Shown one piece after another: positions 112-58,695 of a DNA stretch of 64,000 nt; the first letter of the stretch is position 1, and the number at the start of each line of letters is the position of its first letter. The notes beneath the pieces were generated by a model. It was not told the origin of the DNA. It saw only the letters and a list, made by a program, of their open reading frames with translations, and did no database searches. The stretch is from a virus (lineage: Duplodnaviria; Heunggongvirae; Uroviricota; Caudoviricetes). The stretch lies in the IMG/VR virus record IMGVR_UViG_3300018481_000018, positions 67,759 through 131,758 of that record; one strand, 5' to 3'. The position numbers and the translations under genes are program-made.

Positions 112-152
112 CAGTGGCCTCCTTGTGGCCTCTTTGAACGCGTGTCTGAACA

Positions 153-3964: not shown

Positions 3965-4050
3965 AGGTTTTGAACGTTCGTCGAAACTCCGAATCGACGG
4001 GACGATGGCACTGTCACGCTATGCGTAGGGAACGCCTCATGCGTGACGTG
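3965..4050 (-). repeat. intergenic repeat element A: GAAACTCCGAATCGACGGGACGATGG core plus TCATGCG/TGACGTG heptad-like tail
   Basis: 26-nt core nearly identical to 22511-22537; tail overlaps stop of gene 4037..4327. Confidence 0.65.
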
Positions 4051-10691: not shown

Positions 10692-10733
10692 AAAATCGGG
10701 TGGTGGGTGGTCGGTGACCAATGTTCGGATTGG
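10692..10733 (-). promoter_or_regulatory. conserved promoter-like motif (CAATCCGAACATT core plus CACCCACCACCC tract)
   Basis: Near-identical 40-mers at 17770, 24368, 28300; lies 5-45 nt upstream of gene start 10686. Confidence 0.55.
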
Positions 10734-10734
10734 G

Positions 10735-11823: not shown

Positions 11824-12353
11824 GGCTTCTCCTCGGGGTCGATGCCGTGCTTCTCCAGGAGGGCGGTCAATCGCTCGACCTTCGCCTCGGCCTGCTTGCG
11901 CATGGCCAGCGGCGTGCGGTCCTCGGCGACGGAGATCGACAGCACGTACTGGCTGTCATCGGGCGCGTTGCCCGTCTTGACCTCCCACTCGACGTGGTTG
12001 ATCGCCTGGGGCTGGTGGGCCGAGAAGATCGCGTGAGCCACGCGCCCAAGGTCCAGGCACAGTTCCTCCGGCGGAGCGAATGCCAGCCAACCCTCGTCGC
12101 GGAAGCCGAGGAATTGCCCCTCGTACTCCGCGTCATCCTCGCTGCTCTTGGCCAGCCGCTTGAGGAACTCCGCGTCCAGGTCCTCGGCCGGGCCGTGCGG
12201 GATCCTCATGTGCAGGGCGTGGCGTGACGACGGTTCGATCACCGCGTCGGGCCAGGCCGCGCCGATCATCTGCATGAGCGCGCCGGCCACGTTGAGCGGT
12301 AGCGGCGACTCGATTCGGATGGGCATCCATTCCGACGTGTCCTGGTCGGTCAT
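11820..12353 (-). CDS. hypothetical protein (177 aa)
   Basis: ATG 12353..12351 (MTDQDTSEW..) overlaps upstream stop; ATGA overlap with downstream gene. Confidence 0.55.
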   Translation of the reverse strand: MTDQDTSEWMPIRIESPLPLNVAGALMQMIGAAWPDAVIEPSSRHALHMRIPHGPAEDLDAEFLKRLAKSSEDDAEYEGQFLGFRDEGWLAFAPPEELCLDLGRVAHAIFSAHQPQAINHVEWEVKTGNAPDDSQYVLSISVAEDRTPLAMRKQAEAKVERLTALLEKHGIDPEEKP

Positions 12354-12556
12354 TCCGCGACCTTCATGATGGAGGCGATGGCCTGCTCGACCTCGCGGGC
12401 TGTTACGCGTCGTTCGTCGATGCCGTCCAGGATGTTGGAGGGCAAGTCGTTGCAGCCGGTCGTTTCCCGGCAGGTCTCGCACCGGCCCCAGGACTGGAAC
12501 TCCTTGGGGAACTTCGGGTACCTGCTCTTGTCGGCGCACTCGTTGCAGTAGAACAT
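12350..12556 (-). CDS. hypothetical small Cys protein (68 aa)
   Basis: ORF track; CNEC..CETC..C. Confidence 0.5.
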   Translation of the reverse strand: MFYCNECADKSRYPKFPKEFQSWGRCETCRETTGCNDLPSNILDGIDERRVTAREVEQAIASIMKVAE

Positions 12557-12563
12557 CAGGCCA

Positions 12564-12902
12564 TCAGTCCTCCACGGGAGTCAGGCCGCGCTGCTTGGCC
12601 CACTGATCATCGAACAGGCACTCGTCGGCATCAGCCTGCCTGAGCGCCTGCTTGGGGTAGCCCCGGCCCTCCGGACGAGCGTCTTCGTAGTCCCCGCGCG
12701 CGGCTCGCCGCATCCGTTCGACCTGGGCCTCTGCGAACTTGCGTCGAGTCTTGGGGAACGTCCTGTAGTCCAGGTGCGCCTCGAGCACGGTGGCTTCGTA
12801 GGCGAGCAGGGCTCGCAAGGCGTAGATCTCGTCGACGGCCACGCTCAGGTCGGAGAACGTCACGCCTGGCCGCTCGCGCTTCTCCCAGCGCTGCTTGGCC
12901 AT
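12564..12902 (-). CDS. hypothetical protein (112 aa)
   Basis: ORF track. Confidence 0.55.
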   Translation of the reverse strand: MAKQRWEKRERPGVTFSDLSVAVDEIYALRALLAYEATVLEAHLDYRTFPKTRRKFAEAQVERMRRAARGDYEDARPEGRGYPKQALRQADADECLFDDQWAKQRGLTPVED

Positions 12903-13066
12903 CAGAGACCCTCCGGTCCAGTCAGTTCGAGTCGGTACGGCTCATCCGTGTCGTCGTCTACCAGGTCCAGGTAGGTGCGCCCGGTCCCTTTCGAGTCGTC
13001 GACGACCGAGAACCTGAACGGCACCCCGGTCTCTGCGATCTGGCGCAGCAGTTTCTCGAGGTCCAT
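12902..13066 (-). CDS. hypothetical small acidic protein (54 aa)
   Basis: ATG 13066..13064 (MDLEKLLRQ..) adjacent to upstream stop; ORF-track extension is junk. Confidence 0.4.
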   Translation of the reverse strand: MDLEKLLRQIAETGVPFRFSVVDDSKGTGRTYLDLVDDDTDEPYRLELTGPEGL

Positions 13067-13629
13067 CAGAGCGATCCGCTCATCAGGCGCTGGCCCAGGA
13101 CCTGCTCGGTCAGGGACATGGCGGTTGCTACCTCGTCGTGCTTGTCGCGGACGACCTCCCACGCCTTCTTGAGTTCCTCGAACTCGGTGTGAACGTCCTC
13201 GAAGGTGCGCTCGCCGGCCGTCTCGAGTAGGCGGCGGGCCTTCTTCGCCACGTCGTCGTAGTGCTGGAGTACAGCCTGCGCGTCGCCTTCATACGCCGGG
13301 TTGAGCCGAGCGTCGTGGAAGAGCCGGGTTAGGGCGTGCGGGTCTTGGCGTTGGCACGCCTCGTTCAGCACGTCGGAGTCGAGGCTGAACTTGAAGTCTT
13401 CCGTGACGGGTGAGTAGCCGCCGGTCTTCTTGGAGTACAGCTGGCGTTTGCCCAGCGCCTCGGCGTCATCGGCCCGAGGGAACTTCTGGATCTTCGCCTG
13501 ACCCTTGGTGCCGATGCCGCCCCATGCGGTGACGACGACGCCGTTCTCGGAGAGCAGGACGCAATAGAACTTGTTGTGACTGCCGATCCTGTTCTCCAGG
13601 TACCAGCCGGTGACGGGGATGTTGGTCAT
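13066..13629 (-). CDS. WGR domain-containing protein
   Basis: WYLENRIGSHNKFYCVLLSENGVVVTAWGGIGTKG matches WGR domain consensus (as in PARP N-terminal region). Confidence 0.65.
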   Translation of the reverse strand: MTNIPVTGWYLENRIGSHNKFYCVLLSENGVVVTAWGGIGTKGQAKIQKFPRADDAEALGKRQLYSKKTGGYSPVTEDFKFSLDSDVLNEACQRQDPHALTRLFHDARLNPAYEGDAQAVLQHYDDVAKKARRLLETAGERTFEDVHTEFEELKKAWEVVRDKHDEVATAMSLTEQVLGQRLMSGSL

Positions 13630-13955
13630 GATGCGGCCTCCTCGGGCCTAGACAGGATGGATTGTACGGCTTCAGCAACCTCTTCGTCGGTGGGCTCCAT
13701 GGGTACTAGAGCATCCTCGCGGATCCAGTGGCCGCTTCCGGACTTCCACATCTCATCGTTCAGGTGTGTGGTCACGATGACGTGAGGGTCCTTGTGGTCC
13801 ATGGTGTAGCCGTCGCTTGGGTCGCAGACGATGATCTCGGCGCACTCGGGCACGCCGTTCGAGGTCGGCATGTTCTGTTGCCGGCCGTCTCGGAACCAGT
13901 GTTTGCCCTTCAGTCTGGTGCGGTCACCGGGCTTGAAGTTGACGTACTGAGTCAT
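13626..13955 (-). CDS. hypothetical protein (109 aa)
   Basis: ATG 13955 (MTQYVNFKPGD..) preceded by CAGGAGGGCTG; upstream extension junk. Confidence 0.5.
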   Translation of the reverse strand: MTQYVNFKPGDRTRLKGKHWFRDGRQQNMPTSNGVPECAEIIVCDPSDGYTMDHKDPHVIVTTHLNDEMWKSGSGHWIREDALVPMEPTDEEVAEAVQSILSRPEEAAS

Positions 13956-14208
13956 CAGCCCTCCTGATGCTGGCGATTGCTTCGTTGATCTCGGCCTGCT
14001 TCTCGGCGAGGTGTTCGAGCGCCATGGGCAGCGTGCCACCTTCAGGCGAGTTGCCCTCCGCCAGGAACGCAGGATCGTTGGCAGCGTCGTAAGCCCGGCT
14101 CCACGCCCATGACAGACAGTGCCAGCCGCAAACGCACTCGCCGGCCCACTTGTAGGGCGTGCCGTTGAGGGTGCGCTGGAGTCGGATGGTGACGTGGTGA
14201 TCAGACAT
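13924..14208 (-). CDS. hypothetical protein (94 aa)
   Basis: ORF track. Confidence 0.5.
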   Translation of the reverse strand: MSDHHVTIRLQRTLNGTPYKWAGECVCGWHCLSWAWSRAYDAANDPAFLAEGNSPEGGTLPMALEHLAEKQAEINEAIASIRRADDSVRQLQAR

Positions 14209-14789
14209 CAGTTATCGAACCAGTAGACGATTCTGACGTGCGTCTGATTTCCATCGCACTTGGCGTAGGCGAGATCCTTCAGGCGCTCGAGTGCCTCCGC
14301 CCACTCCTTGTTGACATAGCCTGCGTGGGCTCGGTCGAACAGCGCCTTCCAGTCGACCTGCAAGAGCTCGTCCAGCGTCTGCCAGGAGGGCGTGTGGCCG
14401 TCCTCGCCCCAGGCTTCGTAGTCCTCGCGCACGTTGTCGCAGGCATCTTCAGGGAAGCCTCGTTCCTCCCAGATCTGGTGGTCGCGACCGCGCACGCCAG
14501 CCAGGGCGGAGAACAGCGCGTAGTCACGTCCTGTGTAGAACTTGTCCTCGTACTCGACGTCCCAGGTGGGCAGGCCGTCGTACTCGTCCCGGTAGTCCCC
14601 CACTCCTACCGTGTCGACGGCGGCGATTTTCTCCAGCAGCCACTTGCCAGCGCCGCTCTCGTCTTTGTGCGTCAGCTTCTCGGCGAACGTCCATTCGGGC
14701 GGGCCCTCGGGGACTACTTCGAGAGTAGGGTTCTTCAGCGTCTCTGAGGGGGCCAGGTACTCGACCCTCAGGTGGATGTCGCAGCCCAT
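14208..14789 (-). CDS. hypothetical protein (193 aa)
   Basis: ATG 14789..14787 (MGCDIHLRVEY..) preceded by CAGGAGGACAG; ORF-track N-terminal Arg-rich extension rejected. Confidence 0.6.
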   Translation of the reverse strand: MGCDIHLRVEYLAPSETLKNPTLEVVPEGPPEWTFAEKLTHKDESGAGKWLLEKIAAVDTVGVGDYRDEYDGLPTWDVEYEDKFYTGRDYALFSALAGVRGRDHQIWEERGFPEDACDNVREDYEAWGEDGHTPSWQTLDELLQVDWKALFDRAHAGYVNKEWAEALERLKDLAYAKCDGNQTHVRIVYWFDN

Positions 14790-15208: not shown

Positions 15209-15696
15209 CGCAGCGCGTCTCGGATGACGTCCGGCACCCCTCCGAGGGCAGGGAGCAGGTTCGGCTCGTCCCACGTGACATGGCCTTGCGCTCCACGCAC
15301 GAACGGCACGACGTAGCTCCAGGACTCGTCCATGGTGACACCCGTGATCTGCACGCACTCGGCCATGCTCTCGCCGGCATCGGCGCGGGCCTGGAGTTCC
15401 CCAGGCTGGAGGGACGGGCCGTTCTCGTACTCCTCCTTGTCGAACATCTTCACGTACGACTCGGCGGACACCAACACCCACTTGGGAGCGCCCAGCTTCT
15501 CCGTCGCCCTGTGCAGGATGTCGCGCAAGGTGGGCTGCATGCCACCCGGCAGCATGCCAGCCAGGGCGAAGATGGTCACCTCGCCCTTGGGGTCGCAGTA
15601 GGCGACCATCGGAATGGCCTGCTCGTTCTCCTCGACCAGGTGCCGGTAGAAGTCGAACGCCTGCTCGGGTGTCAGCATCTTGGTTTCCTCACTCAT
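15205..15696 (-). CDS. hypothetical protein (163 aa)
   Basis: ATG 15696..15694 (MSEETKMLTPEQ..) preceded by GAGGAGGGCG. Confidence 0.6.
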   Translation of the reverse strand: MSEETKMLTPEQAFDFYRHLVEENEQAIPMVAYCDPKGEVTIFALAGMLPGGMQPTLRDILHRATEKLGAPKWVLVSAESYVKMFDKEEYENGPSLQPGELQARADAGESMAECVQITGVTMDESWSYVVPFVRGAQGHVTWDEPNLLPALGGVPDVIRDALR

Positions 15697-15814
15697 CACG
15701 CCCTCCTCGGTGCTTGTGGTGCACGGCGTTGCGTCGGCTCTCGTAGACCGTGGCACTGATCCCAACCAGGACCAGTGCCACGATCGCGAGGAGGATGAGC
15801 AGCAGGATCTCCAT
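15689..15814 (-). CDS. small membrane peptide (41 aa)
   Basis: MEILLLILLAIVALVLVGISATVYE..; stop overlaps downstream start; very high GC3; below ORF-track size cutoff. Confidence 0.35.
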   Translation of the reverse strand: MEILLLILLAIVALVLVGISATVYESRRNAVHHKHRGGRDE

Positions 15815-15972
15815 CAGGCACCTGGGCAGTGGTAGACGGTCACGACCTGCGGACCGTGGTCAGGCTGCCATTCCCACGGGTGAGGTGGATGCGGCTCGGT
15901 CTTGGGCTCGAACTTCCGCCCGCCGTCGACCAGGGTGCCGCAGGGGCTCTCGCCCCCATCTTTCTTCTTCAT
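15814..15972 (-). CDS. small ORF (52 aa)
   Basis: ATG 15972 preceded by AGGAGAG; stop TGA shares a base with next start (TGATG); MKKKDGGESPCGTLVDGG.. Confidence 0.4.
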   Translation of the reverse strand: MKKKDGGESPCGTLVDGGRKFEPKTEPHPPHPWEWQPDHGPQVVTVYHCPGA

Positions 15973-15982
15973 GGATTCTCTC

Positions 15983-17743
15983 CTAGACCTTCTCGAAGAT
16001 CCGCTTGACCGATTCGGGCTTCAGGTCAGAGACGGGGATCACCACGTCGCTGATCTTGTTAAGCAGGCCCACCGGTCCGGTCTGGTAGGTCATGTCGTGA
16101 GCGCCTCCGATGTAGACCGAGTAGACCCGTACGCCGACGCGGTTGCGCTCGGCGTTGAACCTCTCGATCCACGTCTCGTCGAGGTGGGACTGGCCGTCGG
16201 TGATGAAGATGATGTCGGCCTTATCCTTCCCCGACTTGTCGAAGTCCTTGGTCGCCTTCTCCAGCGCCTCGGTGAGCACGCCGTCGAACTGCGTGCCCCC
16301 GTTGGCCTGAGTCCCGAGGAACGACATGACCTTCTCGAACGGCCCCTTGCCCTCGGGGAAGTCGAACCGCTCGCGGTCGTTGTTGTTGCCGAAGAACATC
16401 GCGTAGTAGTCACGATCCTCGTCGGCAGCGAACCGTTGCAGCGCCTCGGCCACGCCCATCGCCCACATGAAGGGCGAGCCCCCCATGGAGCCGGACTTGT
16501 CGATGGCGATCACGATGGGGCCCTTGCCGACCTCTTCGGTGCCGCGCATCTTGTAGACGAGCAGCTCCTTTTCCAGGTATCGGCGGTAGAACTCGTACGT
16601 CGTGTCCTTGTGCCCCAGGAGGGCGAACTGCGCCCGGAGCGTGCGACGAAGGTCGTCACCCGTCTCCACGTCGTACGCCTCGTGTGGCACGTCGTTGACC
16701 CTGGTGGCCTTGACGCCCAGTGCGAACCGCTTCATCTGTCCGATCACCTCGGACAGCGCCTTCATCTCCGGCGTGCGGAGTCGCTCGGCGAATGCCAGTC
16801 GTTCCTCGGGGTTCATGCTGTGCCACTCGCCGTCCTCCAGGCCGATGCCCTTGCGGAGGTTGTCGAGCTCGGATGCTTCGCGCTCGGCGGCGTCCAGCAT
16901 CTTGTTGGCCATGCGGTCGAGGTCGAGGTCGTCCAGCATGGCGTCGAACTCGGCCTCCCACTCCGCCTCGGCCTGGTTCATGGCGTCCTCGGAGTCGGGG
17001 TCGAACTCGTCGTCGCCCTCGCCAGTCAGATCCTCCTCAACCTCGGACCCATCGCCCTCGCCGGGGTCGAAGTCGTCGCCGGGAGATGCGCCGCCGGCAC
17101 CTTGGCTCCCACCCTCGCCCTGGCCTTCACCTGGGCTCGGCTGGCCCTCACCCTGGCCTTCACCGCCCTCGCCTTCGCCTTCACCTTGGCCTTCGCCTTG
17201 GCCCTTTCCGCCACCCTTCTTCTTCTTGCCGCCCGGCTGGGGCGGCGGGGGCGGCGGCGGGATGCGGCCGATGATCTCCCGGAGCGGCTCCGCCATGGCG
17301 TCGAGCGCCACGGTCGCCATCACCGGGTCGTTGACGGTGAACTCCTGGAGCTCCTTGAGCTTGGGGTTGTCCGCCACCTCCTCCAGGATCTTGCGCACCG
17401 GGTAGAGCTCGCGCTCGAGGTTGCGCTTGGCCTCCAGGCGAGGGTTCGCCTTGTAGAAGGACTGGAACAGACCCTCGACCAACTCCGGCGCGGGCTCGAA
17501 GCCTTCGCGGTGCCCGTTCTCACGGTGAGTGTCGCCGATCACCAGGTCTTCCACCAGGTCGTCAACGCTCTCGGTCTTGCGCGCCTCCTTCCACACTCGG
17601 TCGTCCCAGCGGTTGGTCTTGATGACCTTCCGGGACTTCTCCTTGGGCTGGGGCGGCGGGGTGAGGCCAGGACCCAGGAAGCCCTGGTTGCTGGCCATGC
17701 GGGACTTGAGCCTGTCGATGAAACTCACGGGCTGTGTGGTCAT
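15983..17743 (-). CDS. von Willebrand factor type A (vWA) domain protein with Gly/Glu low-complexity linker
   Basis: C-terminal IVIAIDKSGSM..GGTQF..IIFITDGQS: DxSxS metal-ion-dependent adhesion site plus conserved T/D; SD CAAGGAGGGGGA. Confidence 0.8.
   Translation of the reverse strand: MTTQPVSFIDRLKSRMASNQGFLGPGLTPPPQPKEKSRKVIKTNRWDDRVWKEARKTESVDDLVEDLVIGDTHRENGHREGFEPAPELVEGLFQSFYKANPRLEAKRNLERELYPVRKILEEVADNPKLKELQEFTVNDPVMATVALDAMAEPLREIIGRIPPPPPPPQPGGKKKKGGGKGQGEGQGEGEGEGGEGQGEGQPSPGEGQGEGGSQGAGGASPGDDFDPGEGDGSEVEEDLTGEGDDEFDPDSEDAMNQAEAEWEAEFDAMLDDLDLDRMANKMLDAAEREASELDNLRKGIGLEDGEWHSMNPEERLAFAERLRTPEMKALSEVIGQMKRFALGVKATRVNDVPHEAYDVETGDDLRRTLRAQFALLGHKDTTYEFYRRYLEKELLVYKMRGTEEVGKGPIVIAIDKSGSMGGSPFMWAMGVAEALQRFAADEDRDYYAMFFGNNNDRERFDFPEGKGPFEKVMSFLGTQANGGTQFDGVLTEALEKATKDFDKSGKDKADIIFITDGQSHLDETWIERFNAERNRVGVRVYSVYIGGAHDMTYQTGPVGLLNKISDVVIPVSDLKPESVKRIFEKV
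17100..17260 (-). repeat. GC-rich short tandem repeats encoding (GEGQ)n/Gly-Lys low-complexity tract inside the vWA gene
   Basis: ggccttcgccttcaccttggccttcgcc.. periodicity visible in sequence. Confidence 0.6.
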
Positions 17744-17769
17744 TCCCCCTCCTTGGGGTGGGTGTGAAG

Positions 17770-17810
17770 ATTTCGCGTGGGTGGTGCTGGGACTGAATGT
17801 TCGGATTGAG
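17770..17810 (-). promoter_or_regulatory. conserved promoter-like 40-mer (..CAATCCGAACATTCAGTCCCAGCACCACCCACGCGAAATC.. on - strand)
   Basis: Same element as 10692, 24368, 28300; immediately upstream of vWA gene start 17743. Confidence 0.55.
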
Positions 17811-17816
17811 CGCCCA

Positions 17817-18320
17817 TCACCCTCCCTCCCCGCAGTCGCAACCTTGGGGATCGTGTGGCTGTCCGGGCTGGCACCACGGGTAGCGATACCCCTGGAACTC
17901 GGCGGGCGGCTCCATGCCGAACGACCTGTAGAGATCGGCTATCTCCTGTGCGGTGACCTCGGCCGGGGGCCTGGTGCCCGATCCTGGGCAGAGTGCTCTC
18001 TGGAATGGGCCGATGTCGTGCGTCACGAACCGACCGCCGATGTCGGTGTCGGTGTAGTAGCCACACCGCTCGCACAGGTCGGTCGGCTCGCCCTTCAGGA
18101 CGGCCGCATCGTGGCTGGCCGCTTCCAGTCGTCTCTTGATCTCCTCAGCCGAGGCGGGCTTGAGGCGGAGGTACTCACACGCGCTCACCAGGTCACAGCC
18201 AGTGTCGTAGCAGTCCTGGCAGTAGTCGACGTCCGGGCGGCCGTCTCGACCCGAGTGCGTGAACGGAACCCGACTGATCGGCAGGCTCCGCTCACAGCAC
18301 TCGCAGTCTTTGTAAGGCAT
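17817..18320 (-). CDS. hypothetical Cys-rich protein (167 aa)
   Basis: ATG 18320 (MPYKDCECCERS..) adjacent to upstream stop; many CxxC. Confidence 0.55.
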   Translation of the reverse strand: MPYKDCECCERSLPISRVPFTHSGRDGRPDVDYCQDCYDTGCDLVSACEYLRLKPASAEEIKRRLEAASHDAAVLKGEPTDLCERCGYYTDTDIGGRFVTHDIGPFQRALCPGSGTRPPAEVTAQEIADLYRSFGMEPPAEFQGYRYPWCQPGQPHDPQGCDCGEGG

Positions 18321-18322
18321 GG

Positions 18323-19141
18323 TCAGGCCATCACGTGCTCGCCCTGGGTGGCAGGGCAGACCGCGTTCTCGGTCGAATCGTCGAGCACGACCCGGCCGTC
18401 GGCCAGTTGCTTGACGACCGAGACGCACGTGCTGCACATGCCGCGCTTGACCGGCGCGTTGCCAGCTTCGCGCTGGGCGTTGACGGCCTCATCCACGATC
18501 CGATCGCCCTGGGTGGCTCCGGGCTTGTAGCCCGCCTTGGTGGCCCCCTTGGGCTCCTGGTACATGAACAGGTAGCCGCCGCCGTTGTCCAGGACTCCGA
18601 CCCGACCGAGTCGCCCGGTCTTGAGCAGGAAGTCCAGCATGGCCAAGGCGGCCACGCTGTCGGCAGGGTCGACTTCGGCCAGCGCGTCCTCGAACGTTGC
18701 CGGTCCCGTGTTCATCAGTCCACCCAGCGCGCTGTTCACGGCGTTCTGGACGAGCGTCGAAATGTCGGGCTGCGGAGCGGCCGCCGCCGGCTGGGTGGTG
18801 AAGGCGGAGCCCGGAAGGGGCGCGATCCCCAGGTCGGAGCAGAGCCGCTCGTAGATGTCCGGCTTCTCGCCGATGTACTCGTTCAGGTACTCCTCGACCG
18901 TGCGGTCGGGGCCGACGTGCTGCTGGAACAGGTCGTAGTGCTCCGTGATGTGGTCGATCTGGGCGGCGGTGATGATTGCGCCCGGTCGCACGATGTCTTT
19001 CGTCATGGATTCCTCCTGGTGGTGTTCATGGCAAGTGGCGTACGGCCCGTATGGCCCCTGCGAGACGTGCGCGGCGGGGCGGGGAGGTTCGATCCCGTCC
19101 TCGATGCACCGCTCGCAGAGACCATCCAGGTATCCGTCCAT
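18323..19141 (-). CDS. hypothetical protein (272 aa; alt start 19006 with CCAGGAGGAA SD)
   Basis: ORF track; ATG 19141 shares a base with MoxR stop (TGATG). Confidence 0.6.
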   Translation of the reverse strand: MDGYLDGLCERCIEDGIEPPRPAAHVSQGPYGPYATCHEHHQEESMTKDIVRPGAIITAAQIDHITEHYDLFQQHVGPDRTVEEYLNEYIGEKPDIYERLCSDLGIAPLPGSAFTTQPAAAAPQPDISTLVQNAVNSALGGLMNTGPATFEDALAEVDPADSVAALAMLDFLLKTGRLGRVGVLDNGGGYLFMYQEPKGATKAGYKPGATQGDRIVDEAVNAQREAGNAPVKRGMCSTCVSVVKQLADGRVVLDDSTENAVCPATQGEHVMA

Positions 19142-20400
19142 CAGGCCGGCGAGTTGACGGCTGCGGCGTTGGCCAGGTTCTGCTGGGCCGTGGCGTCGAT
19201 GCCGAAGATGTCCTTGCCGATCTGGAGCTTGAACGAGTTCGCCTTGCCGATCACCTCGACCAGCCGAGTGGTCGCCGCACCAGCGGCCTGGGCCTTGGTG
19301 AGGTGCTCGTTGGCCTCAGCGAGCAGGCGGTCGATGTTCTTGACCTGCTCCACGCCGATCCGCTTCTTGCGGCTGTCGTCGACGTCGGGCTTGGACGCGG
19401 CGTTGATCTCGTCACGCACCTTGTCCAGGTCCTCGAGCAGGTCCAGTGCAGCCTTCTCGCCGGGGTTGGTGGCGGCCAGGATGACCGACCGGGCCTCGGG
19501 ACGCTGCTCCTGCACGGTCCACCACATGTTGGCGAGGACGTCCAGGTCGGCGACCTTCACCTCGTTGTGACCCCGGACCCAGGCGTTGGCCATGACGGCG
19601 GCCATGCCTTCGACCGAACGGCGGTCGCTGATGTTGATCTGGGCCTTGCCCTGGCGCAGCTCGTCGCGAATGTCGAAGAACATCGCCACCACCGGGTCGG
19701 ACACCGGCAGGGCCAGCGCCTCCTTGTGGGCCTGGTCGAGCTCGTCGAGCGTGACGATCGTCTTGCTCTGGCCGGGCACCATGGTGCTCACGCCGCGACC
19801 CACCAGGGCCATGCGAGCGATCGCGTCGCCCACCAGGTCGATCTGGTTCTGGCGGTCGGCCACGTAGTCGACGATGTGCCGGATGTGGATTCGGTCCCAC
19901 AGCGCGGCCTGGTCGGCATCGGCGTTCAGCTTGTTGGTGCCGGCGAACATCGAGCGCAGCTCGATCTCGTGCGGGATGCCGTTGTTGTGGAACACCCGCT
20001 CGTTCAGGATCGGCTGCATCGAGTGGAGCAGCGGACCGTTGGCGTTGAAGAACTCGTCGCAGAAGGCGTGAGTCGCCTCCGGCAGCATGCCGGTGGTGAC
20101 GCGGCGGGTCTTGCCGTCCTCGACCATGGCCTTGATGTCAGGCGGGCCGAAGACCTGCGAGGGGTCCGTGGTCTCGTCGAACGCGGACTCGAAGTACACC
20201 GAGCCCTCGATGTGGCTGCACATCCGACGGACGGCGTAGGACTTGCCGGTACCTGCCGGGCCGAGCATGAGCAGGTGCTCCTGAGCGACGGCGGCGACCC
20301 ACATGTCGTGGATCAGGGCCTCGCGCTCCTTGATGTCCTGGCTCATCTCGGCCACGATGTTGAGCACGCGGTCCTGAACGCTCGTGGTAGTGGTGGTCAT
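19141..20400 (-). CDS. MoxR-like AAA+ ATPase (AAA_5 type)
   Basis: Walker A LGPAGTGKS; MoxR-like spacing of later motifs; ATG 20400 preceded by GAGGAGGAGAC; ORF-track N-terminal Arg-rich 145 aa rejected. Confidence 0.8.
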   Translation of the reverse strand: MTTTTTSVQDRVLNIVAEMSQDIKEREALIHDMWVAAVAQEHLLMLGPAGTGKSYAVRRMCSHIEGSVYFESAFDETTDPSQVFGPPDIKAMVEDGKTRRVTTGMLPEATHAFCDEFFNANGPLLHSMQPILNERVFHNNGIPHEIELRSMFAGTNKLNADADQAALWDRIHIRHIVDYVADRQNQIDLVGDAIARMALVGRGVSTMVPGQSKTIVTLDELDQAHKEALALPVSDPVVAMFFDIRDELRQGKAQINISDRRSVEGMAAVMANAWVRGHNEVKVADLDVLANMWWTVQEQRPEARSVILAATNPGEKAALDLLEDLDKVRDEINAASKPDVDDSRKKRIGVEQVKNIDRLLAEANEHLTKAQAAGAATTRLVEVIGKANSFKLQIGKDIFGIDATAQQNLANAAAVNSPA

Positions 20401-20425
20401 GCGAGTCTCCTCCTCGGAGATTGGG

Positions 20426-20446
20426 TTCTGGACGTTCGTCTGAACT
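20426..20446. promoter_or_regulatory. imperfect palindrome GTTCTGGACG-TT-CGTCTGAAC (operator-like family member)
   Basis: ~26 nt upstream of MoxR start; related to sites at 35145, 44976, 46649, 47119. Confidence 0.4.
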
Positions 20447-20465
20447 GGCAGTTCGTTGGTAGCGG

Positions 20466-21701
20466 TCACTCTTGCCGCATGTGCTTGCGCTCGCGGATCG
20501 TTGCCCGAGCCCGTTTCTGCTGGCTTCGCTGTGCAGCCTCTCGGGCGTAGGCGATGAGGGTATCTTCCTCGCCGGTCAGGGACGCAACGGTTCGCGCCTC
20601 GTCCCACTTCTCGGCGATCTCGCCGTGATTCACCTGGGCGTGACAGTTGACCACGAACGTGCCGGTGGGTAGGTGCATGGTCAGGCTGTGCTGGTAGTCG
20701 AACCCGCTTTGAGTTTCGCCGTCGTGGACACTCTCGATGCTGACGGTGACCCCAGAGGCGTCGCCGCTGAGCAGCGCCTTCTGGAAGTCGTTCTCGGTCT
20801 TGTCGTCGATCACCATGCCGATGCCTCGCAGGCATGTTTGGAGCTCCCTGTAGAGGCGAAGGGCCTCGGTCAGGGTGGGCGTGCCGTCGAGGTAGTCGGT
20901 GAGGTCGGTGGTGAAGCCGCTGTGCATGTTCGTCTCGTACAGCTCCAGGTCCATCCAGGTCGGGTTCTCCGGGTCGCGGAGGTCGGGCACTTGAATGGTC
21001 TCGAAGTCGTCGATGTTGCGCACCTGGTTCAGTAGTCCTTCGACCAGCGCTCGCTCGGAGGTGTACTGGTTACGACCCAGCCAAGCAGCCCAGGTTGCCG
21101 GGTCGTCCCGGACGAACTCGCGTGCCGTGGCTGCCGCCTGGGTGTTCGGTGATACCGAGTTGATCAAGGTGTCGAAGGTGTGGTTCTGCACCCTGTAGGC
21201 AGCTGGGTGCAGCGCCTCCCACGCCCTGATCCCCACCGGCGCGGTGCGAGGAAGCATGACTGCGGTCTCGATCTTGTGCGCGCTGGATCCATTGGGATGG
21301 ACCCGGCCAGCGCTGACTACGACCAGCGCTTCGATCGGCAGCGTGGGATGTTTGAAGCGCCACCACACATTCGTCTTCGTGTGGAAGTTTTGGTCGAGGA
21401 CGTACAGCTCGGCGCGCGTCTCGGCCGGCTTGAAGCCCGCCTCGTCCTCGACCCTCTCCTCGTAGTCGTGCAGGGGCATCCAGATCGACGCCGCGTTCTT
21501 CTCGGCGTATGCCTGGACGGTGCGCATCACGAGTTCGTCCATGTCCTTGGTGAACGCGCTCAGGTCGGTGCCCGCGACGCGAACCTTCCGACCCGAGCCG
21601 GACTGCTCGAGCGCGGGTTCGGCCACGATCGTTCCGTCGGTGAGCAGCCACTGGCGCGACTGCTCAAAGTTGGTTCGTGGGTGCCAGGCTGTCTGCCCCA
21701 T
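20466..21701 (-). CDS. hypothetical protein (411 aa)
   Basis: ORF track; SD CGAGGAGGCTCAGC before ATG 21701. Confidence 0.6.
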   Translation of the reverse strand: MGQTAWHPRTNFEQSRQWLLTDGTIVAEPALEQSGSGRKVRVAGTDLSAFTKDMDELVMRTVQAYAEKNAASIWMPLHDYEERVEDEAGFKPAETRAELYVLDQNFHTKTNVWWRFKHPTLPIEALVVVSAGRVHPNGSSAHKIETAVMLPRTAPVGIRAWEALHPAAYRVQNHTFDTLINSVSPNTQAAATAREFVRDDPATWAAWLGRNQYTSERALVEGLLNQVRNIDDFETIQVPDLRDPENPTWMDLELYETNMHSGFTTDLTDYLDGTPTLTEALRLYRELQTCLRGIGMVIDDKTENDFQKALLSGDASGVTVSIESVHDGETQSGFDYQHSLTMHLPTGTFVVNCHAQVNHGEIAEKWDEARTVASLTGEEDTLIAYAREAAQRSQQKRARATIRERKHMRQE

Positions 21702-24354: not shown

Positions 24355-24367
24355 GAGGCTCCTCAGG

Positions 24368-24408
24368 ATTTCGCGTGGGTGGTGTTGAGGTCCAATGTTC
24401 GGATTGAG
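24368..24408 (-). promoter_or_regulatory. conserved promoter-like 40-mer (CAATCCGAACATTGGACCTCAACACCACCCACGCGAAATC on - strand)
   Basis: Third copy of the long motif; 14 nt upstream of ATG 24354. Confidence 0.55.
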
Positions 24409-25771: not shown

Positions 25772-26098
25772 TTACACCTCGTTGAGGATGTCGATGCGGG
25801 GGAGGTCGCACTCCTCCGCGAACTCGTCGAGGACCTCGGTGAGCGTCATGTTGTGCTGGCTTGGCAGCGTGAGGATGTGGTCGATGTTGTTCTGAACGTG
25901 CGTCCGAACCTCCTGGAGGAACTGCTCCATCCTGAACTTCTTGAGGTAGCCGGCGTCGGCCGGCAAGGTCGTCACTTCGTCGATCACCAGGTCGTCCGGC
26001 GTCTCGGTGATGTGAACCTGGAACATGACGCCCTCGAACGCACGTTCCTCACTCGTGGCGACATAGCCGTCGACTTGCAGTACATGCTTGGTGTTCAC
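25772..26098 (-). CDS. hypothetical protein (108 aa), coupled to ligase gene
   Basis: GTG 26098..26096 overlaps ligase stop (GTGA), preceded by GGAGG; ORF-track start 26149 would overlap ligase by 55 nt. Confidence 0.5.
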   Translation of the reverse strand: MNTKHVLQVDGYVATSEERAFEGVMFQVHITETPDDLVIDEVTTLPADAGYLKKFRMEQFLQEVRTHVQNNIDHILTLPSQHNMTLTEVLDEFAEECDLPRIDILNEV

Positions 26099-26904
26099 AG
26101 CGCCTCCAGGACCTTCTTGTTCACGTGCCGGAGTTGGCCGGTGGTGCATTCGTGCATCGCCTTGTCGTCCCGCTTGCGCAGGATGGTGGGCTGGTAGAGC
26201 CGCCCGCCGGCACCGGTGTAGAGGTAACGCACCTCGAGCACGTCACCCATGGCGATAGTCCCGCCCTTCTCCTTGCCAATCAGACTGGCGCGGCCCACTG
26301 AGACCACATCCCCGTCCTCGACCAGCCCCAGGTCCACGGAGTCCTTGCCGTCGGTTCGGACGCCCGTCACGATGCAGTCGGCGGTCGAGACGAACTTGAG
26401 CTTGAGCCACTCCTCGGTGCGGCCACCGGATCTGTAGGGCGAGTTCGCCTTCTTGAGCATGAGTCCCTCGAAGCCATCTTGCAGAGCGCGGCTGGCGAGT
26501 TTGATCTTCTCGTCGAGCGTCTTCGCCTGAGGTACCAACTTGAAGTCGTTGGGCACCGAGCCCAGGAAGGTCTCCAAGCCTGCGCGCCGCTGGAAGAGCG
26601 GCTTGTCGGCCCACAGCAGTGTGGGCGTCAGGGGCATGTCGAACACCCAGAAGACGTCTCCCACGAGCTCGCCGTCCAGCGCCCACTCCCCTGCCGGGAA
26701 GCGGAAGTCGATCACGCTGCGCGGCAACTTCTTGGAGTAGATCGAGCCGTTGCGGGTGATGGCGTTGCCGGGCATGTCCATGCCGGGCGACATCAGCAGG
26801 ATGCGGTTGCCGTCCAACTTCTGCTCCATGACCCAGGAGTCGTCCTTGATGAATGCTTCGAGCGAGGTCACCTCGGCCGACTTGGCCAGTTGGGGGTACA
26901 ACAT
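26095..26904 (-). CDS. ATP-dependent DNA ligase (minimal, ~269 aa)
   Basis: Adenylation motif I EQKLDGNR; further nucleotidyltransferase motifs (FDxP, EGLMLK, KLK); ATG 26904..26902 overlaps upstream stop; ORF-track N-terminal 118 aa extension is junk. Confidence 0.8.
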   Translation of the reverse strand: MLYPQLAKSAEVTSLEAFIKDDSWVMEQKLDGNRILLMSPGMDMPGNAITRNGSIYSKKLPRSVIDFRFPAGEWALDGELVGDVFWVFDMPLTPTLLWADKPLFQRRAGLETFLGSVPNDFKLVPQAKTLDEKIKLASRALQDGFEGLMLKKANSPYRSGGRTEEWLKLKFVSTADCIVTGVRTDGKDSVDLGLVEDGDVVSVGRASLIGKEKGGTIAMGDVLEVRYLYTGAGGRLYQPTILRKRDDKAMHECTTGQLRHVNKKVLEAL

Positions 26905-27122
26905 CACTTCACCTCCAAGGTGATGATCGGGTCGAACTCGAAGAATCCGACGATGAGGCCGAATCCGTAGATGAGGAAGAAGAAGACGGCCACCGTGAAC
27001 ACGCCAGCGAACAACGCAGGCAGCCAGCCGGGGCCGATCTCGCCCATCCCTGTCACCAGGACCATCCACCAACAGCCAGCTGCGATGAACGGGGCCAGGA
27101 TGAACAGCAGCGACAGCATCAC
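26904..27122 (-). CDS. small integral membrane protein (72 aa, 2-3 TM)
   Basis: ORF track; highly hydrophobic; ATGA overlaps both sides. Confidence 0.5.
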   Translation of the reverse strand: MMLSLLFILAPFIAAGCWWMVLVTGMGEIGPGWLPALFAGVFTVAVFFFLIYGFGLIVGFFEFDPIITLEVK

Positions 27123-27355
27123 TTGCTCCTGACGGGAAACTTCTCGATGTGCCAGAAGTCGCTGTAGTCACTCCGCTGGAGGTTCGCGCTCGCCCAGGAG
27201 GAGCCATCCTCCTGGAGGTACCAGCGCTTGACTTCTGGGCGTGACGCTTTGGCGACATCCGCGTCGACGAATACCTGCTCCACCTCGCTCCCCTCGTAGG
27301 GGAAGACGTGGGTGAGGACGAACACCTCCTCGACGGCTAGCTTCGGCCTAGGCAT
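27119..27355 (-). CDS. hypothetical protein (78 aa)
   Basis: ORF track; coupled between Ku and membrane protein. Confidence 0.5.
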   Translation of the reverse strand: MPRPKLAVEEVFVLTHVFPYEGSEVEQVFVDADVAKASRPEVKRWYLQEDGSSWASANLQRSDYSDFWHIEKFPVRSK

Positions 27356-28203
27356 CAGACGGCCTCACGCTCCGCCTTGGCGGCCTCCACGGACGCCGAG
27401 AGCATGGCCAGGAGGTCCGGTGCGGCAGCGGGGGCCGCAGCGACCACGCGCTCGCCCTCGGCGGGCTTGCCGAAGTCGCCGGCACTGGCCTTCTCGTCGG
27501 CGAACGTCTGGATCAGGGCGGTTCGCTCGTCGGTGAAGTCCAGTGGCTGGTCCTCCCACACGGTCTTGATGAGCGTGCCCATCATGGCGACCTCGGCGTC
27601 GACGACCTCGGTCTCCGGGAACTCGCGCTGCTCACGAACAGCGTCGGTGTGGTGCACGAGCCACAGTCGCCCGTCGGGCATCAGGACGCAGGGCTTCGGC
27701 TTGCCTCGCGTGGTGAGCTCGCAGACCGCCATCGCGTTCTGCTCGCGCATCGCCTTGAACAGCGTCGCCATGAGCTTGGTTGCCACCGGGTCCGGCTTGC
27801 CCTTGGCCTTGCCTGAGTCGCCCTTGCGCGGCTCGGTGTAGAGCAGGCCGGAGGGGACGAAGTGACCCTGGTGGAAGTTGTGCTGCGGCTCGAACTCCCG
27901 GACGACCAGGGTGTCGGGCTGGAGCGTGAACAGTTGCTCGATCTCGTGGTCCTCCACGTAGACCGGGCCGTACTCGGTGTCGATCTTCTTGATGACCTCT
28001 GCGCCGGGTTCGAGCAGCTCGCCCGTTTCCTTGTTGGTCAGGCCGCGACCCACGGGAGCCTCGCCGTCGTCGGTGACGACGAACTGCTTGCGCGTGATGC
28101 CGTGGTCGGACACGGTGCCGGTGTAGAGGGTGATCGGGATGTTGACGAGGTTGAACGAGAGGTTGACCTTGTTCAGCGAGCGACCGCTGGGCTGTGCCTT
28201 CAT
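27355..28203 (-). CDS. ku: Ku-like DNA end-binding protein (non-homologous end-joining)
   Basis: N-terminus LSFNLVNIPITLYTGT matches bacterial Ku core (cf. ISFGLVNIPVKLY); 282 aa; C-terminal Ala/Lys tail. Confidence 0.8.
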   Translation of the reverse strand: MKAQPSGRSLNKVNLSFNLVNIPITLYTGTVSDHGITRKQFVVTDDGEAPVGRGLTNKETGELLEPGAEVIKKIDTEYGPVYVEDHEIEQLFTLQPDTLVVREFEPQHNFHQGHFVPSGLLYTEPRKGDSGKAKGKPDPVATKLMATLFKAMREQNAMAVCELTTRGKPKPCVLMPDGRLWLVHHTDAVREQREFPETEVVDAEVAMMGTLIKTVWEDQPLDFTDERTALIQTFADEKASAGDFGKPAEGERVVAAAPAAAPDLLAMLSASVEAAKAEREAV

Positions 28204-28236: not shown

Positions 28237-28635
28237 TCAGTTTCTGCTGGCGAACCAGTTGTCGACACGCGCCGCAAGAGCGTATCGCGCATCGTCGAGC
28301 CGTTGGAGCAGATTTCGTCGTGGGCGTTCCGGGACTGAACGTTCGGAATGCTCCAGAGCGCAGAGCGCCGGGTAGAGGTCGGGCATGTCTCGCACGCACG
28401 TCAGGACCTCGATCACGAGGTCTCGGTCATGCGGGATCTTGTCGTCGTCCGTCGCGCCCGCTCCGACGCTTCGACCGTGGAAGAAGCCCCGGACGTAGCC
28501 CATGACGGCCGCATCCTTGACGAGCTGTTGCTCGTGCTCGGTCATGGCCTCCCACATCTTGCCGGCGGCGGTCAGGCGTTCGTTGTCGCGGGCTGCGAGG
28601 TACGCCTCGAAGCCCTCAGGCAGGCTGGTGGTCAT
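28237..28635 (-). CDS. hypothetical protein (132 aa); 3' end contains promoter-like 40-mer
   Basis: ATG 28635 overlaps upstream stop; C-terminal codons coincide with motif copy at 28300-28341. Confidence 0.5.
   Translation of the reverse strand: MTTSLPEGFEAYLAARDNERLTAAGKMWEAMTEHEQQLVKDAAVMGYVRGFFHGRSVGAGATDDDKIPHDRDLVIEVLTCVRDMPDLYPALCALEHSERSVPERPRRNLLQRLDDARYALAARVDNWFASRN
28300..28341 (-). promoter_or_regulatory. promoter-like 40-mer embedded in coding 3' end, 95-135 nt upstream of Ku start
   Basis: CATTCCGAACGTTCAGTCCCGGAACGCCCACGACGAAATC (- strand) matches 30/40 positions of the 17770 copy. Confidence 0.5.
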
Positions 28636-52034: not shown

Positions 52035-52039
52035 GCATA

Positions 52040-58683: not shown

Positions 58684-58695
58684 TCCAGTTGCCTC

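Follow-up and report, generated by a model that had tools for sequence, protein, structure and literature searches.

The window analysed here is a stretch of 64,000 nucleotides, and its viral nature is deduced from PHROG hits and from the listing of two relatives as viral genomes in IMG/VR. All seven minus-strand open reading frames (ORFs) that had been claimed for positions 15689-21701 exist at those coordinates. They are listed here from the 5' end of the block, together with two intergenic motifs and the start of a more distant gene:

20466..21701, minus strand: g411, a 411-aa orphan protein, the conserved upstream neighbour of MoxR in the clade
20425..20439, minus strand: class B intergenic motif ACGAACGTCCAGAAC, preceding the ribosome-binding site of MoxR on its upstream side; one arm of a formerly described palindrome
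19141..20400, minus strand: MoxR-type AAA+ ATPase, 419 aa, with Pfam, NCBIfam, PDB and PHROG matches
18323..19141, minus strand: g272, a 272-aa protein whose N-terminal half varies and whose C-terminal domain is conserved
17817..18320, minus strand: g167, a Cys-rich 167-aa protein with zinc-ribbon-like CxCC...CxxC and CxxC...C motifs
17766..17810, minus strand: class A intergenic motif CTCAATCCGAACATT-N-CACCACCCACGCGAAATC, immediately preceding the vWA gene; the formerly described 40-mer
15983..17743, minus strand: ViaA-like vWA protein, 586 aa, with Pfam, NCBIfam and PHROG matches
15814..15972, minus strand: m52, a 52-aa ORF of doubtful status
15689..15814, minus strand: m41, a 41-aa single-pass membrane micro-protein, based on the ORF and a homologue in L017
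1..111, minus strand: first 37 codons (N-terminus) of a gene of the DUF6744 family, which starts at 111 and continues past the left window edge

The ATPase matches the Pfam models bpMoxR (5.4e-40), AAA_5 (4e-17) and AAA_lid_8 (2e-11), phrog_19600 (1.6e-66), and the NCBIfam RavA model (2.3e-36, at 126 vs 681 bits below the cut-off). Escherichia coli RavA is its only solved relative, and the whole AAA+ module aligns with it (residues 10-297, E 9e-30), which bears out the MoxR-type ATPase with Walker A GPAGTGKS of the original prediction. Across 24 homologues, there is no variation at Walker A K53, Walker B D115/E116, N156, or R260/R261. By homology, this 419-aa MoxR AAA+ ATPase, nearest to RavA, is competent for catalysis, and a hexameric ring is its expected form. 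The alignment stops at residue 297; the RavA LARA and C-terminal domains are not matched, and a family-specific helical region occupies the place of the LARA domain. The models for CoxD/E, NorQ/D, CbbQ/O, and chelatases in Pfam and NCBIfam gave P-loop-only matches at most, and the chelatase-type reading (CoxD/E, NorQ/D) was not upheld, as RavA and ViaA were the only NCBIfam models matched.

The 586-aa protein is composed of a conserved N-terminal domain (approximately residues 1-170), an acidic, disordered, Gly/Glu/Gln-rich linker, and a C-terminal vWA domain. It matches Pfam VWA (1e-5) and VWA_2 (1.5e-5), phrog_24053 (9e-47), and the NCBIfam ViaA model (4.4e-25, below the equivalog cut-off at 89 vs 500 bits); the ViaA match covers the pre-vWA and vWA region and leaves the N-terminal domain unmatched. 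The metal-ion-dependent adhesion site (MIDAS; DKSGS, GGT, TDG) is intact and is kept in the clade, in ORF063 of Bacillus phage 0305phi8-36 and in the Moorella phage, and by homology the protein is the ViaA-like cofactor of the ATPase. The E. coli mechanism, a hexameric ATPase acting with a MIDAS cofactor, would be expected for the phage pair as well. The phage pair differs from RavA-ViaA in scores far under the equivalog cut-offs, in showing neither a LARA nor a triple-helix domain, and in its setting: RavA-ViaA forms a chromosomal housekeeping or stress operon, whereas the phage pair belongs to a mobile-element gene set. Domain searches thus agree with the AAA_5 and VWA assignments and the adhesion site originally predicted; the linker, the Cys-rich nature of g167, the transmembrane micro-ORF (the 41-aa ORF, with a hydrophobic N-terminus), and the separation of the MoxR and vWA genes by other genes were described correctly too.

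In a comparison with approximately 15 related loci (L-numbered) from an uncultured viral clade of approximately 120-150 kb, g411, MoxR, and vWA are constant, with no g411 upstream of MoxR in L014. g411 stays directly upstream of MoxR even where neighbouring genes differ and MoxR identity is as low as 49%; in one and the same genome pair, g411 is 49% identical vs 82% for MoxR, and g411 evolves much faster than MoxR. Its C-terminus is a long basic helix, and no recognisable fold or family relatives were found for it. The C-terminal domain of g272 (approximately 130 aa) closes with an invariant C-x2-C...C...H zinc motif, with E196, P197, G199, Y205, R214, C236, C239, C262, and H269 among the invariant residues of g272. 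All 40 homologues of g272 are clade members, and the domain is confined to one sub-clade (L005, L007, L009, L012, L013, L016, and L017), where it remains between the MoxR and vWA genes while the N-terminus is exchanged. In the AF2 model of g272 (pLDDT 75), the C-terminal domain takes the form of a helix-helix-hairpin plus zinc ribbon. The JGI gene call for g272 is shorter (227 aa).

g167 has no family matches in Pfam or PHROG and a homologue only in L017 (61% identical); its N-terminal Cys motif recurs elsewhere only in L005, fused to a g272-like protein. The L017 homologue of m41 (44 aa, same position) has a matching hydrophobic N-terminus and is 76% identical over the C-terminal 25 residues, and none was found in more distant relatives. 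No relative has a homologue of m52, and L017 has an unrelated 68-aa ORF in its place. The 'conserved six-gene block' of the original prediction therefore stands in part: g411-MoxR-vWA recurs in related uncultured viral contigs across the clade and the g272 C-terminal domain in some of them, whereas g167 and m41 are kept only in L017, and m52 is conserved nowhere. Nor are the two intervening genes a fixed pair, since g272 N-termini are swappable and g167 is almost exclusive to this phage. The gap between MoxR and vWA, a hot-spot for insertions, holds 1 to approximately 9 genes in the clade, and the two genes are adjacent only in more distant homologues, i.e., on plasmids and, unlike here, in Moorella phage MTATph1 and Aphanizomenon CL131. 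The neighbourhood of the pair is made up of small genes of non-structural type, among them those for Ku, ATP-dependent ligase, WGR, and a methylase, and no structural genes were seen within the window.

The operator and promoter that the block was thought to own are both copies of motifs used genome-wide. The 'operator-like palindrome' (20426-20446) proved to be a weak, bulged inverted repeat, unranked by the repeat search, in which only one arm is conserved. This arm, the class B motif, is kept upstream of MoxR in L008, L012, L013, L015, and L016, and similar copies precede other genes, e.g., at window position 3981 and before the vWA gene of L005. The 'promoter-like 40-mer' (17770-17810) is real and conserved, being found upstream of the vWA gene in L012, L013, L016, and L017 as well, but it is a generic motif for which no sigma-70 consensus was found. 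Its first box, AATCCGAACATT, has 8 matches in the window vs 0.76 expected, all co-oriented with genes, and its second box is common to the copy at 24367-24408. Both classes are genome-wide intergenic motifs and not private operators.

The phrog_19600 and phrog_24053 pair is also present in Bacillus phage 0305phi8-36, Moorella phage MTATph1, and plasmids of Streptomyces, Nocardia, and Rubrobacter; going by these matches, the identity of the pair and its membership of a lineage of phages and plasmids are, taken jointly, close to certain. RavA/ViaA-like pairs are already annotated in a few large phages. Among cultured phages, 0305phi8-36 matches both proteins best (MoxR-like ORF066, 32-36% identity by alignment; vWA ORF063, 25% over nearly full length), and its two proteins fall into the same PHROG families. 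There, too, two small ORFs separate the genes and the surrounding region is non-structural, so that, with the variable gap in the clade, the split is not distinctive. This phage differs in its low-GC Firmicute host, 219-kb genome, and unrelated intervening ORFs, the phage studied here being high-GC, and it contains no g411 or g272 homologues. Its authors annotated ORF063 as 'metalloprotein chaperonin subunit' and the pair as a metalloprotein chaperonin. A mutant whose deletion spans orf063-066 remains viable but shows a growth defect (PMC3357382), which may be due to co-deleted tRNA genes; in view of this viability, the module is probably accessory, raising fitness and not essential.

On plasmids, the pair forms contiguous MoxR-vWA-DUF6744 operons (Streptomyces sp. 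NBC_01310, NBC_00239, and NBC_01244; Nocardia farcinica, pNF1-type; N. cyriacigeorgica; Rubrobacter tropicus), and the annotations of the three genes go no further than 'AAA family ATPase', 'hypothetical', and 'DUF6744 family protein'. The plasmid ATPase resembles that of the phage at 31% identity over residues 11-407, including the family-specific C-terminal region, and the plasmid vWA protein matches in both the N-terminal and MIDAS domains. The Streptomyces plasmid pair is homologous over both full lengths, its vWA protein aligning with the 586-aa protein at both ends, and matches both PHROG families. These operons differ from the phage module in lacking g411 and g272 homologues and in belonging to plasmids rather than viruses.

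In 0305phi8-36, MTATph1, and the plasmids, the association of the pair with DUF6744 is strict. The ATPase lies 1.7-3 kb upstream of DUF6744, on the same strand, in 10 of 10 DUF6744 plasmid records, and two divergent DUF6744 queries against 50,697 phage records found only 0305phi8-36 (ORF046, 8.5 kb from the pair) and MTATph1. In the window, the DUF6744 gene shares the strand of the vWA gene and follows it approximately 16 kb further downstream; its start is 70% identical to residues 1-37 of the L014 protein (tblastn), and its N-terminal sequence MGNTQVMSGYTDAIKNLPPEAFLGSLVFFSISDADVN agrees with the family consensus FLGxLxxFSIxDxDV. The same arrangement exists in the relative IMGVR_UViG_3300018481_000002 (L009 and L019), so that DUF6744 is found in this window, in L014, and in the L009/L019 contig. 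DUF6744 is a probable third partner of the pair, although its co-occurrence in this clade, 8-19 kb away, may stem partly from conserved genome order. It showed no recognisable fold or family relatives, and the literature search found no paper that mentions it. The occurrence of the pair on actinobacterial plasmids and with DUF6744 indicates a role that is probably general to mobile elements, not the phage-specific one that had been suggested.

We propose that the block forms the core of a RavA/ViaA-type remodelling machine carried by mobile elements. The clade has added the fast-evolving orphan g411 directly upstream, and one sub-clade has the zinc-binding, adaptor-like g272, with exchangeable N-terminal modules, between both genes. 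The vWA protein and its partners would recruit the ATPase to a target, the MIDAS site clamping an acidic residue on a client or adaptor, and the ATPase would spend ATP on remodelling or taking apart a specific protein complex shortly after the element enters a cell. Such remodelling would most likely serve counter-defence or exclusion in element-host or element-element conflict. The chances of this reading as a whole are evenly balanced, and the conflict role taken alone is put forward tentatively. It is suggested by the origin of the best Pfam model, bpMoxR, in MoxR-vWA conflict systems (PMC7159879), by the divergence of g411, by the varying N-termini of g272, and by the insertion hot-spot. 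The ternary conflict systems (with VMAP, iSTAND, FtsH, or beta-propeller components; Kaur et al. 2020, PMC7159879), which are enriched in Actinobacteria, share with the phage module a three-part logic of MoxR, vWA, and a rapidly diverging third protein. They differ in that they are host-chromosomal and not encoded by an invader, and that the FtsH and beta-propeller systems have a GxxxTAKS variant vs the canonical GPAGTGKS here; none of their four components was found in the phage module, and its vWA protein is without a fused effector domain. None of the module components showed a client, an effector, or a nuclease/protease/TIR-type domain, and a PADLOC search returned nothing beyond a P-loop match. 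As g411 and DUF6744 are without fold or family relatives, the roles given to them are guesses. In coliphage Bas54, a MoxR ATPase gene is needed to overcome a predicted defence system (bioRxiv 10.1101/2025.11.20.689424); the Bas54 protein is absent from the tblastn matches of this ATPase, which makes it a precedent from a different MoxR lineage.

Among the alternatives, it is unlikely that no functional block exists beyond the pair, with g411, g272, g167, and the micro-ORFs as passengers of an inherited gene order. The variable gap content, the lack of g411 upstream in L014, and the poor conservation of g167 and m52 would fit this, as would the genome-wide motif preceding each of MoxR and vWA, which suggests separate regulation. 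Against it stand the persistence of g411 upstream of MoxR among changing neighbours and the retention of the g272 C-terminal domain between both genes.

A RavA/ViaA-like physiology or metal-cofactor insertion, in which the pair would act on a metallo- or respiratory enzyme of the host or phage to mature or modulate it, is improbable, and less likely than a conflict role. The models named for it are E. coli Nuo and Frd, CoxD/E, NorQ/D, or an RNR. It draws on RavA and ViaA as the sole curated models matched, on their targets, namely respiratory complexes and the inner membrane (PMC3893208, PMC10585395, PMC9489729), on the 0305phi8-36 annotation, and on small membrane proteins encoded after the vWA gene in this window as well as in L012, L013, and L017. 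The low bit scores, the unmatched RavA domains, and the P-loop-only chelatase matches argue against it, and no candidate metalloenzyme consistently adjoins the pair.

Equally improbable is a DNA-end or replication accessory to the Ku/ligase/WGR end-joining kit or the replisome, an idea in which the vWA protein provides the protein-interaction domain that eukaryotic Ku has built in. Most relatives have Ku upstream and a WGR protein and ATP-dependent ligase nearby, pairs in other phages adjoin RecQ/RecJ, DNA polymerase III beta, or an RNR and Holliday-junction resolvase, and the modelled g272 domain and the basic helix of g411 would be compatible with it. However, DNA-metabolism genes dominate the non-structural regions of large phages, which makes proximity weak evidence; many unrelated small genes separate the pair from Ku, ligase, and WGR, whose order varies, the plasmid operons lack such neighbours, and domain searches detected no DNA-binding family.

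Other virus-encoded MoxR-vWA chaperone/co-chaperone pairs, namely those of Acidianus two-tailed virus (ATV) and group 2.2 jumbo phages, are associated with virions or linked to their assembly, and the vWA protein of the jumbo phages has a metallopeptidase domain that the vWA protein here does not. A virion or tail assembly chaperone that folds or assembles structural proteins, as reported to be required for ATV tail assembly and proposed for group 2.2 jumbo phages (PMC7824862; PMC7159879), is very unlikely here, and less likely than a conflict role, because plasmids of Nocardia, Streptomyces, and Rubrobacter, which produce no virions, carry the pair as an operon, the genes sit among non-structural ones, the 0305phi8-36 mutant without both genes gives infective particles, and the similarity to RavA far exceeds that to the ATV ATPase, a weak tblastn match confined to the P-loop core (26% identity, residues 44-248, E 8e-10).

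The block lies on the - strand, and all of the ORFs of the original prediction are present, namely:

20466-21701 (-), 411-aa protein (g411), 5' of the MoxR gene
19141-20400 (-), 419-aa MoxR ATPase
18323-19141 (-), 272-aa protein (g272)
17817-18320 (-), Cys-rich 167-aa protein (g167)
15983-17743 (-), 586-aa vWA protein
15814-15972 (-), 52-aa ORF
15689-15814 (-), 41-aa membrane ORF

The 419-aa protein is, as judged from its sequence, a MoxR AAA+ ATPase. It carries the Walker A motif GPAGTGKS and matches the Pfam families bpMoxR (5.4e-40, 137 bits, cut-off 27), AAA_5 (4e-17, 63 bits, cut-off 22) and AAA_lid_8 (1.8e-11, 44 bits, cut-off 22.8). A check for missing MoxR-specific features thus found them present, i.e., both the AAA+ core and the characteristic lid of the family, and the original assignment to the MoxR type holds. 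RavA (PRK13531) is the sole NCBIfam model that matches the ATPase (2.3e-36), with 125.9 bits against an equivalog cut-off of 681 bits and with model positions 5-287 of 498 covered. Likewise, RavA chains are the only solved relatives in the PDB (E 9e-30), with an unbroken alignment over residues 10-297, where it stops, of the 419 residues. The C-terminal triple-helical and LARA domains, by which RavA binds LdcI, were not found in the ATPase, which has no Pfam match past residue 306; its C-terminal region is common to the phage and plasmid homologues. Among 24 homologues with 53-82% identity, residues G47, G50, K53, D115/E116, N156, R170/R174 and R260/R261 are invariant (24/24), and P48, G49, T51 and S54 are conserved in at least 90%. 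Since Walker A, Walker B (D115/E116), N156 and several arginines are kept in this way, the ATPase looks active.

The 586-aa protein matches Pfam VWA and VWA_2, and no other domain was found in it. Its match to the NCBIfam model ViaA (PRK10997; 4.4e-25) is confined to residues 319-516 and stays below the equivalog cut-off (88.8 versus 500 bits). The metal-ion-dependent adhesion site (MIDAS) is complete, with IDKSGSM, GGTQF and FITDG providing DxSxS and the downstream Thr and Asp metal ligands. N-terminal to the vWA part lies another conserved domain, and the two are joined by an acidic linker rich in Gly, Glu and Gln; the DxSxS site and the (GEGQ)n linker of the original prediction are both present. 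The MIDAS is kept in all clade members examined, in ORF063 of Bacillus phage 0305phi8-36 and in CDS0114 of the Moorella phage, and is degenerate in Aphanizomenon phage CL131. In two related contigs (L013, 11929-13859; L016, 13929-15637), gene calling fragmented vWA or set a long opposite-strand ORF across its N-terminal half, and tblastn found the reading frame split up, which probably reflects frameshifts or misassembly and not a true loss of the gene.

Identical copies of the ATPase are encoded by an ENA metagenome contig and a 144,413-bp JGI contig. The 251 homologues of the ATPase are nearly all metagenomic and many lie on contigs of 120-149 kb, two of which are viral genomes in the IMG/VR listing. 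A search of 185,579 species genomes gave one short (3.5-kb) MAG contig only, hence there is no sign of prophage or chromosomal copies there, and at the DNA level the 6-kb block had no megablast match among 50,697 phage records. In IMG/VR, a single-protein pattern scan had no matches and an alignment-based scan was needed to find relatives. The window has a G+C content of 62-69% and long same-strand runs of small genes, with no capsid or terminase gene within it. An actinobacterial host is plausible on two grounds, a fitting G+C content and the binning of one homologue as Nonomuraea.

In tblastn, Bacillus phage 0305phi8-36 (ORF066 and ORF063) and Moorella phage MTATph1 are the cultured phages that match both proteins best, with CL131 also among the best for the ATPase. 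In 0305phi8-36, the MoxR and vWA genes are likewise split by two small ORFs, whereas in MTATph1 and CL131 they are adjacent, unlike in the window. The ATPase belongs to phrog_19600 (1.6e-66, residues 5-376) and the vWA protein to phrog_24053 (9e-47). The same two profiles are matched by a pair on a plasmid of Streptomyces sp. NBC_01310, where the ATPase shows 31% identity across residues 11-407, and the vWA gene follows directly, its product matching the window protein at the N-terminal and MIDAS domains. Several ravA-viaA-like genes at about 30% identity (MG065691 and MG065686, i.e., Campylobacter phages A11a/A18a, OR845595, OR850905, AGRM01000003 and AFYI01000003) were set aside; besides the records named Campylobacter phage, these are short Salmonella and Escherichia 'phage' fragments and Salmonella whole-genome-shotgun contigs in the phage collection, which look like enterobacterial chromosomal sequence, and the genes are probably not of phage origin.

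A third gene accompanies the pair. In the NBC_01310 plasmid, the gene after the pair encodes DUF6744 (PF20529; 4.9e-30), and in 10/10 plasmid records with a DUF6744 match the ATPase gene lies upstream of it, at 1.7-3 kb and in the same orientation. In the Moorella phage, DUF6744 lies 0.7 kb upstream of MoxR (5.6e-61), and in 0305phi8-36 it is ORF046, 8.5 kb from ORF063; with two divergent DUF6744 queries, these two genomes were the only ones matched among the 50,697 phage records. The window itself starts inside a DUF6744 gene (111-1, - strand), of which 37 codons lie within it, 70% identical to the DUF6744 N-terminus of the related contig L014. The gene is complete in L014, where it lies 8.5 kb from MoxR, and in two further relatives, L019 and L020; in an IMG/VR relative it shares the strand of MoxR and follows it at a distance of about 16 kb. 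The contiguous MoxR-vWA-DUF6744 operon of the plasmid type is absent here, DUF6744 being about 16 kb downstream of vWA in the window and 8-19 kb away in relatives. DUF6744 gave no PDB, PADLOC or informative PHROG match, and the literature search found no paper mentioning the family. The possibility that g411 is a diverged DUF6744 was rejected (hhalign probability 0.5%). Taken over the plasmids and phages compared, the MoxR/vWA lineage is tied strictly to DUF6744.

The conservation of the block was assessed in 12 related loci (L005, L007-L010, L012-L017, and L004, which has the same sequence as the window). With L014 as the exception, a g411 homologue adjoins MoxR on its 5' side in loci whose MoxR identity is as low as 49%. 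At 82% MoxR identity g411 retains 49%, and at 64-66% it retains 34%; by these values g411 is evolving much faster than its neighbour. Upstream genes of 0305phi8-36, MTATph1 and CL131 did not match the g411 profile. The structure model of g411 is mixed alpha/beta and multi-domain, and is not a propeller. The vWA gene is always downstream of MoxR in these loci, with variable content in between:

Content of the MoxR-vWA gap in the compared loci
L010: one small ORF
L008 and L015: one gene, for a protein with a partial L12-like helix
L012 and L013: one gene, for a g272-type protein
Window, L017, L005, L007 and L014: two genes
L016: about nine small genes

From this comparison, the gap behaves as an insertion hot-spot. 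In L016 (MoxR 84% identical), the g272-like gene is separated from vWA by about eight small inserted ORFs of 49-109 aa (12009-14261), and the motif upstream of the vWA gene is retained despite the insertion. The 137-146-aa gap protein of L008 (11236-11649) and L015 (11310-11750), both distant relatives, is unrelated to g272; a link to ribosomal L7/L12 was rejected, as the C-terminal-domain match (E 1e-8 and 2e-5) spans 27-29 residues of a 67-residue model. In the g272 family, conservation is confined to the C-terminal ~130 residues, where a YxEPxG...GYxPGxTxGxR loop is exposed and a C-x2-C...C...H zinc motif is invariant; in their N-terminal halves, even the proteins of closely related loci are dissimilar. 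For g167 and the 41-aa membrane ORF, conservation extends no further than L017, the closest relative, and the 52-aa ORF is kept in none of the relatives compared. None of the products of g411, g272, g167 and the micro-ORFs has a family match in Pfam, PHROGs, NCBIfam or PADLOC. Because the remaining genes vary, the six-gene block originally described as conserved shrinks to a three-gene core, g411-MoxR-vWA, plus a fourth domain (the C-terminal part of g272) in one sub-clade.

MoxR-vWA pairs in phages are already known, and the window pair is a further member of the 0305phi8-36-type lineage. Comparison places it in a mobile-element lineage tied to DUF6744, with clade-specific additions. The strict DUF6744 association on plasmids and phages, the partners g411 and g272 in a large uncultured clade, and the plastic MoxR-vWA gap all appear to be undescribed so far. 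The 0305phi8-36 pair was annotated in 2007 as a MoxR-type 'metalloprotein chaperonin' from linkage alone (PMC2147016), and pairs in large phages have carried this label by annotation since; the present comparison narrows the possible roles. In one abundant clade of uncultured ~140-kb elements, the lineage has gained orphan partners.

By homology, the MoxR ATPase has a ViaA-like MIDAS cofactor and should be hexameric, as RavA is; the vWA protein and the partners may direct it to a protein complex, which it would then remodel using ATP. With modest confidence, a role in element-host conflict is favoured, as the locus has conflict-like features (fast-evolving g411, exchangeable g272 N-termini and an insertion hot-spot), signs of an accessory status, a MoxR model of conflict-system origin and a phage precedent. 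An accessory function is pointed to by the 0305phi8-36 mutant lacking both genes, two tRNA genes and six unknown ORFs, which is viable with a growth defect (PMC3357382). The best-fitting model, bpMoxR, was defined from MoxR-vWA conflict systems (PMC7159879). The precedent is a MoxR ATPase gene of coliphage Bas54, needed to overcome a predicted defence system in a recent screen (bioRxiv 10.1101/2025.11.20.689424); it is not a close relative, since it is absent from the tblastn matches of the window ATPase. The ternary systems of Kaur et al. 2020 have VMAP, iSTAND, FtsH or a beta-propeller as third component, whereas g411, g272 and g167 have no Pfam match. Those systems also carry an effector domain (peptidase, nuclease, cyclase, etc.) on the vWA protein or third component; none was found here, and PADLOC gave no match beyond a P-loop one. 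Should the module turn out to serve counter-defence, it would mirror, on the side of the invader, the MoxR-vWA conflict systems known from multicellular bacteria.

Of the rivals to a conflict role, an accessory role at DNA ends or in replication is suggested by the Ku, ligase and WGR neighbours, which are encoded on the strand of the block:

27355-28203 (-), Ku
26095-27258 (-), ATP-dependent DNA ligase domain protein
13066-13629 (-), WGR-domain protein

This end-joining-like set is kept in most relatives in varying order, and the window Ku protein had no tblastn match among deposited phage records. Another rival is that the extra genes beside the pair reflect mere gene-order inheritance. A third is a RavA-like action on respiratory or metallo-enzymes. 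NCBIfam gave only RavA and ViaA for the pair, with no match to chelatase, CoxD-CoxE, NorQ-NorD or CbbQ-CbbO models, and the Pfam Mg_chelatase match of the ATPase is limited to the P-loop (residues 21-62). No gene for a target metalloenzyme was found adjoining MoxR or vWA, and a reading of the pair as one of the chelatase, CoxD/E or NorQ/D type has no support. A virion assembly chaperone of the ATV type, to which sequence similarity is weak, is unlikely, as are functions restricted to lytic phages, because the lineage is common to phages and actinobacterial plasmids and forms an operon on the latter. The viable 0305phi8-36 deletion likewise argues against a part in virion assembly. The plasmid operons also speak against the phage-specific role initially proposed. 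Cultivable carriers of the module are Bacillus phage 0305phi8-36, Nocardia farcinica pNF1 and the Streptomyces NBC plasmids.

Both intergenic elements that had been ascribed to the block recur elsewhere. The promoter-like 40-mer preceding vWA is an instance of a bipartite motif of the form AATCCGAACATT-N(about 20)-CGCGAAATC. The motif (C)AATCCGAACATT has 8 matches in the window versus 0.76 expected; each copy shares the orientation of the gene that it precedes, and CGCGAAATC(T) often follows after ~20 nt:

10720-10734, 17796-17810, 24394-24408, 28338-28346 and 53266-53295 (tandem) (-), (C)AATCCGAACATT copies
58693-58707, 61911 and 62704 (+), (C)AATCCGAACATT copies

The bipartite motif is kept 5' of the vWA gene in L012, L013, L016 and L017, and also stands in intergenic positions 5' of unrelated genes in every related contig examined. 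The 'operator-like palindrome' is an inverted repeat that is weak and bulged and that a repeat search left unranked; only one arm, ACGAACGTCCAGAAC, is conserved, and this recurs 5' of MoxR in five relatives and 5' of other genes. A second motif, ACG(A/C)ACGT(C/T)CA(A/G)AAC, which at MoxR is this conserved arm, precedes the ribosome-binding sites of a number of genes by 15-30 nt, MoxR among them:

20425-20439, 3967-3981 and 47115-47129 (-), copies in the window
12845 in L005 and 21158 in L008, copies in related contigs

In the window (112-160) and in L014, the DUF6744 gene also has a similar sequence in front of it. A promoter and terminator scan found no sigma-70 promoter in 13-25 kb, and neither motif fits the sigma-70 consensus. 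The 40-mer thus stands as a real, conserved motif, without a sigma-70 fit and without being private to the block, and the palindrome as a private operator was dropped. On this comparative evidence, both motifs are genuine signals used genome-wide, and they suggest that MoxR and vWA may be expressed from separate signals. The AATCCGAACATT motif may be a phage promoter or activator site, and the window codes for its own sigma-70 family protein, among other features of the + strand:

51954-52233 (+), three-tRNA cluster (Arg-CCT, Trp-CCA, Ser-CGA)
53944-54840 (+), dual-specificity phosphatase domain protein
54789-55523 (+), MazG-like pyrophosphatase
59468-60523 (+), sigma-70 family protein with regions 2, 3 and 4

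The AATCCGAACATT motif changes strand where transcription does, near 53 kb; the flip itself lies near 53.3 kb, where the motif stands in tandem.
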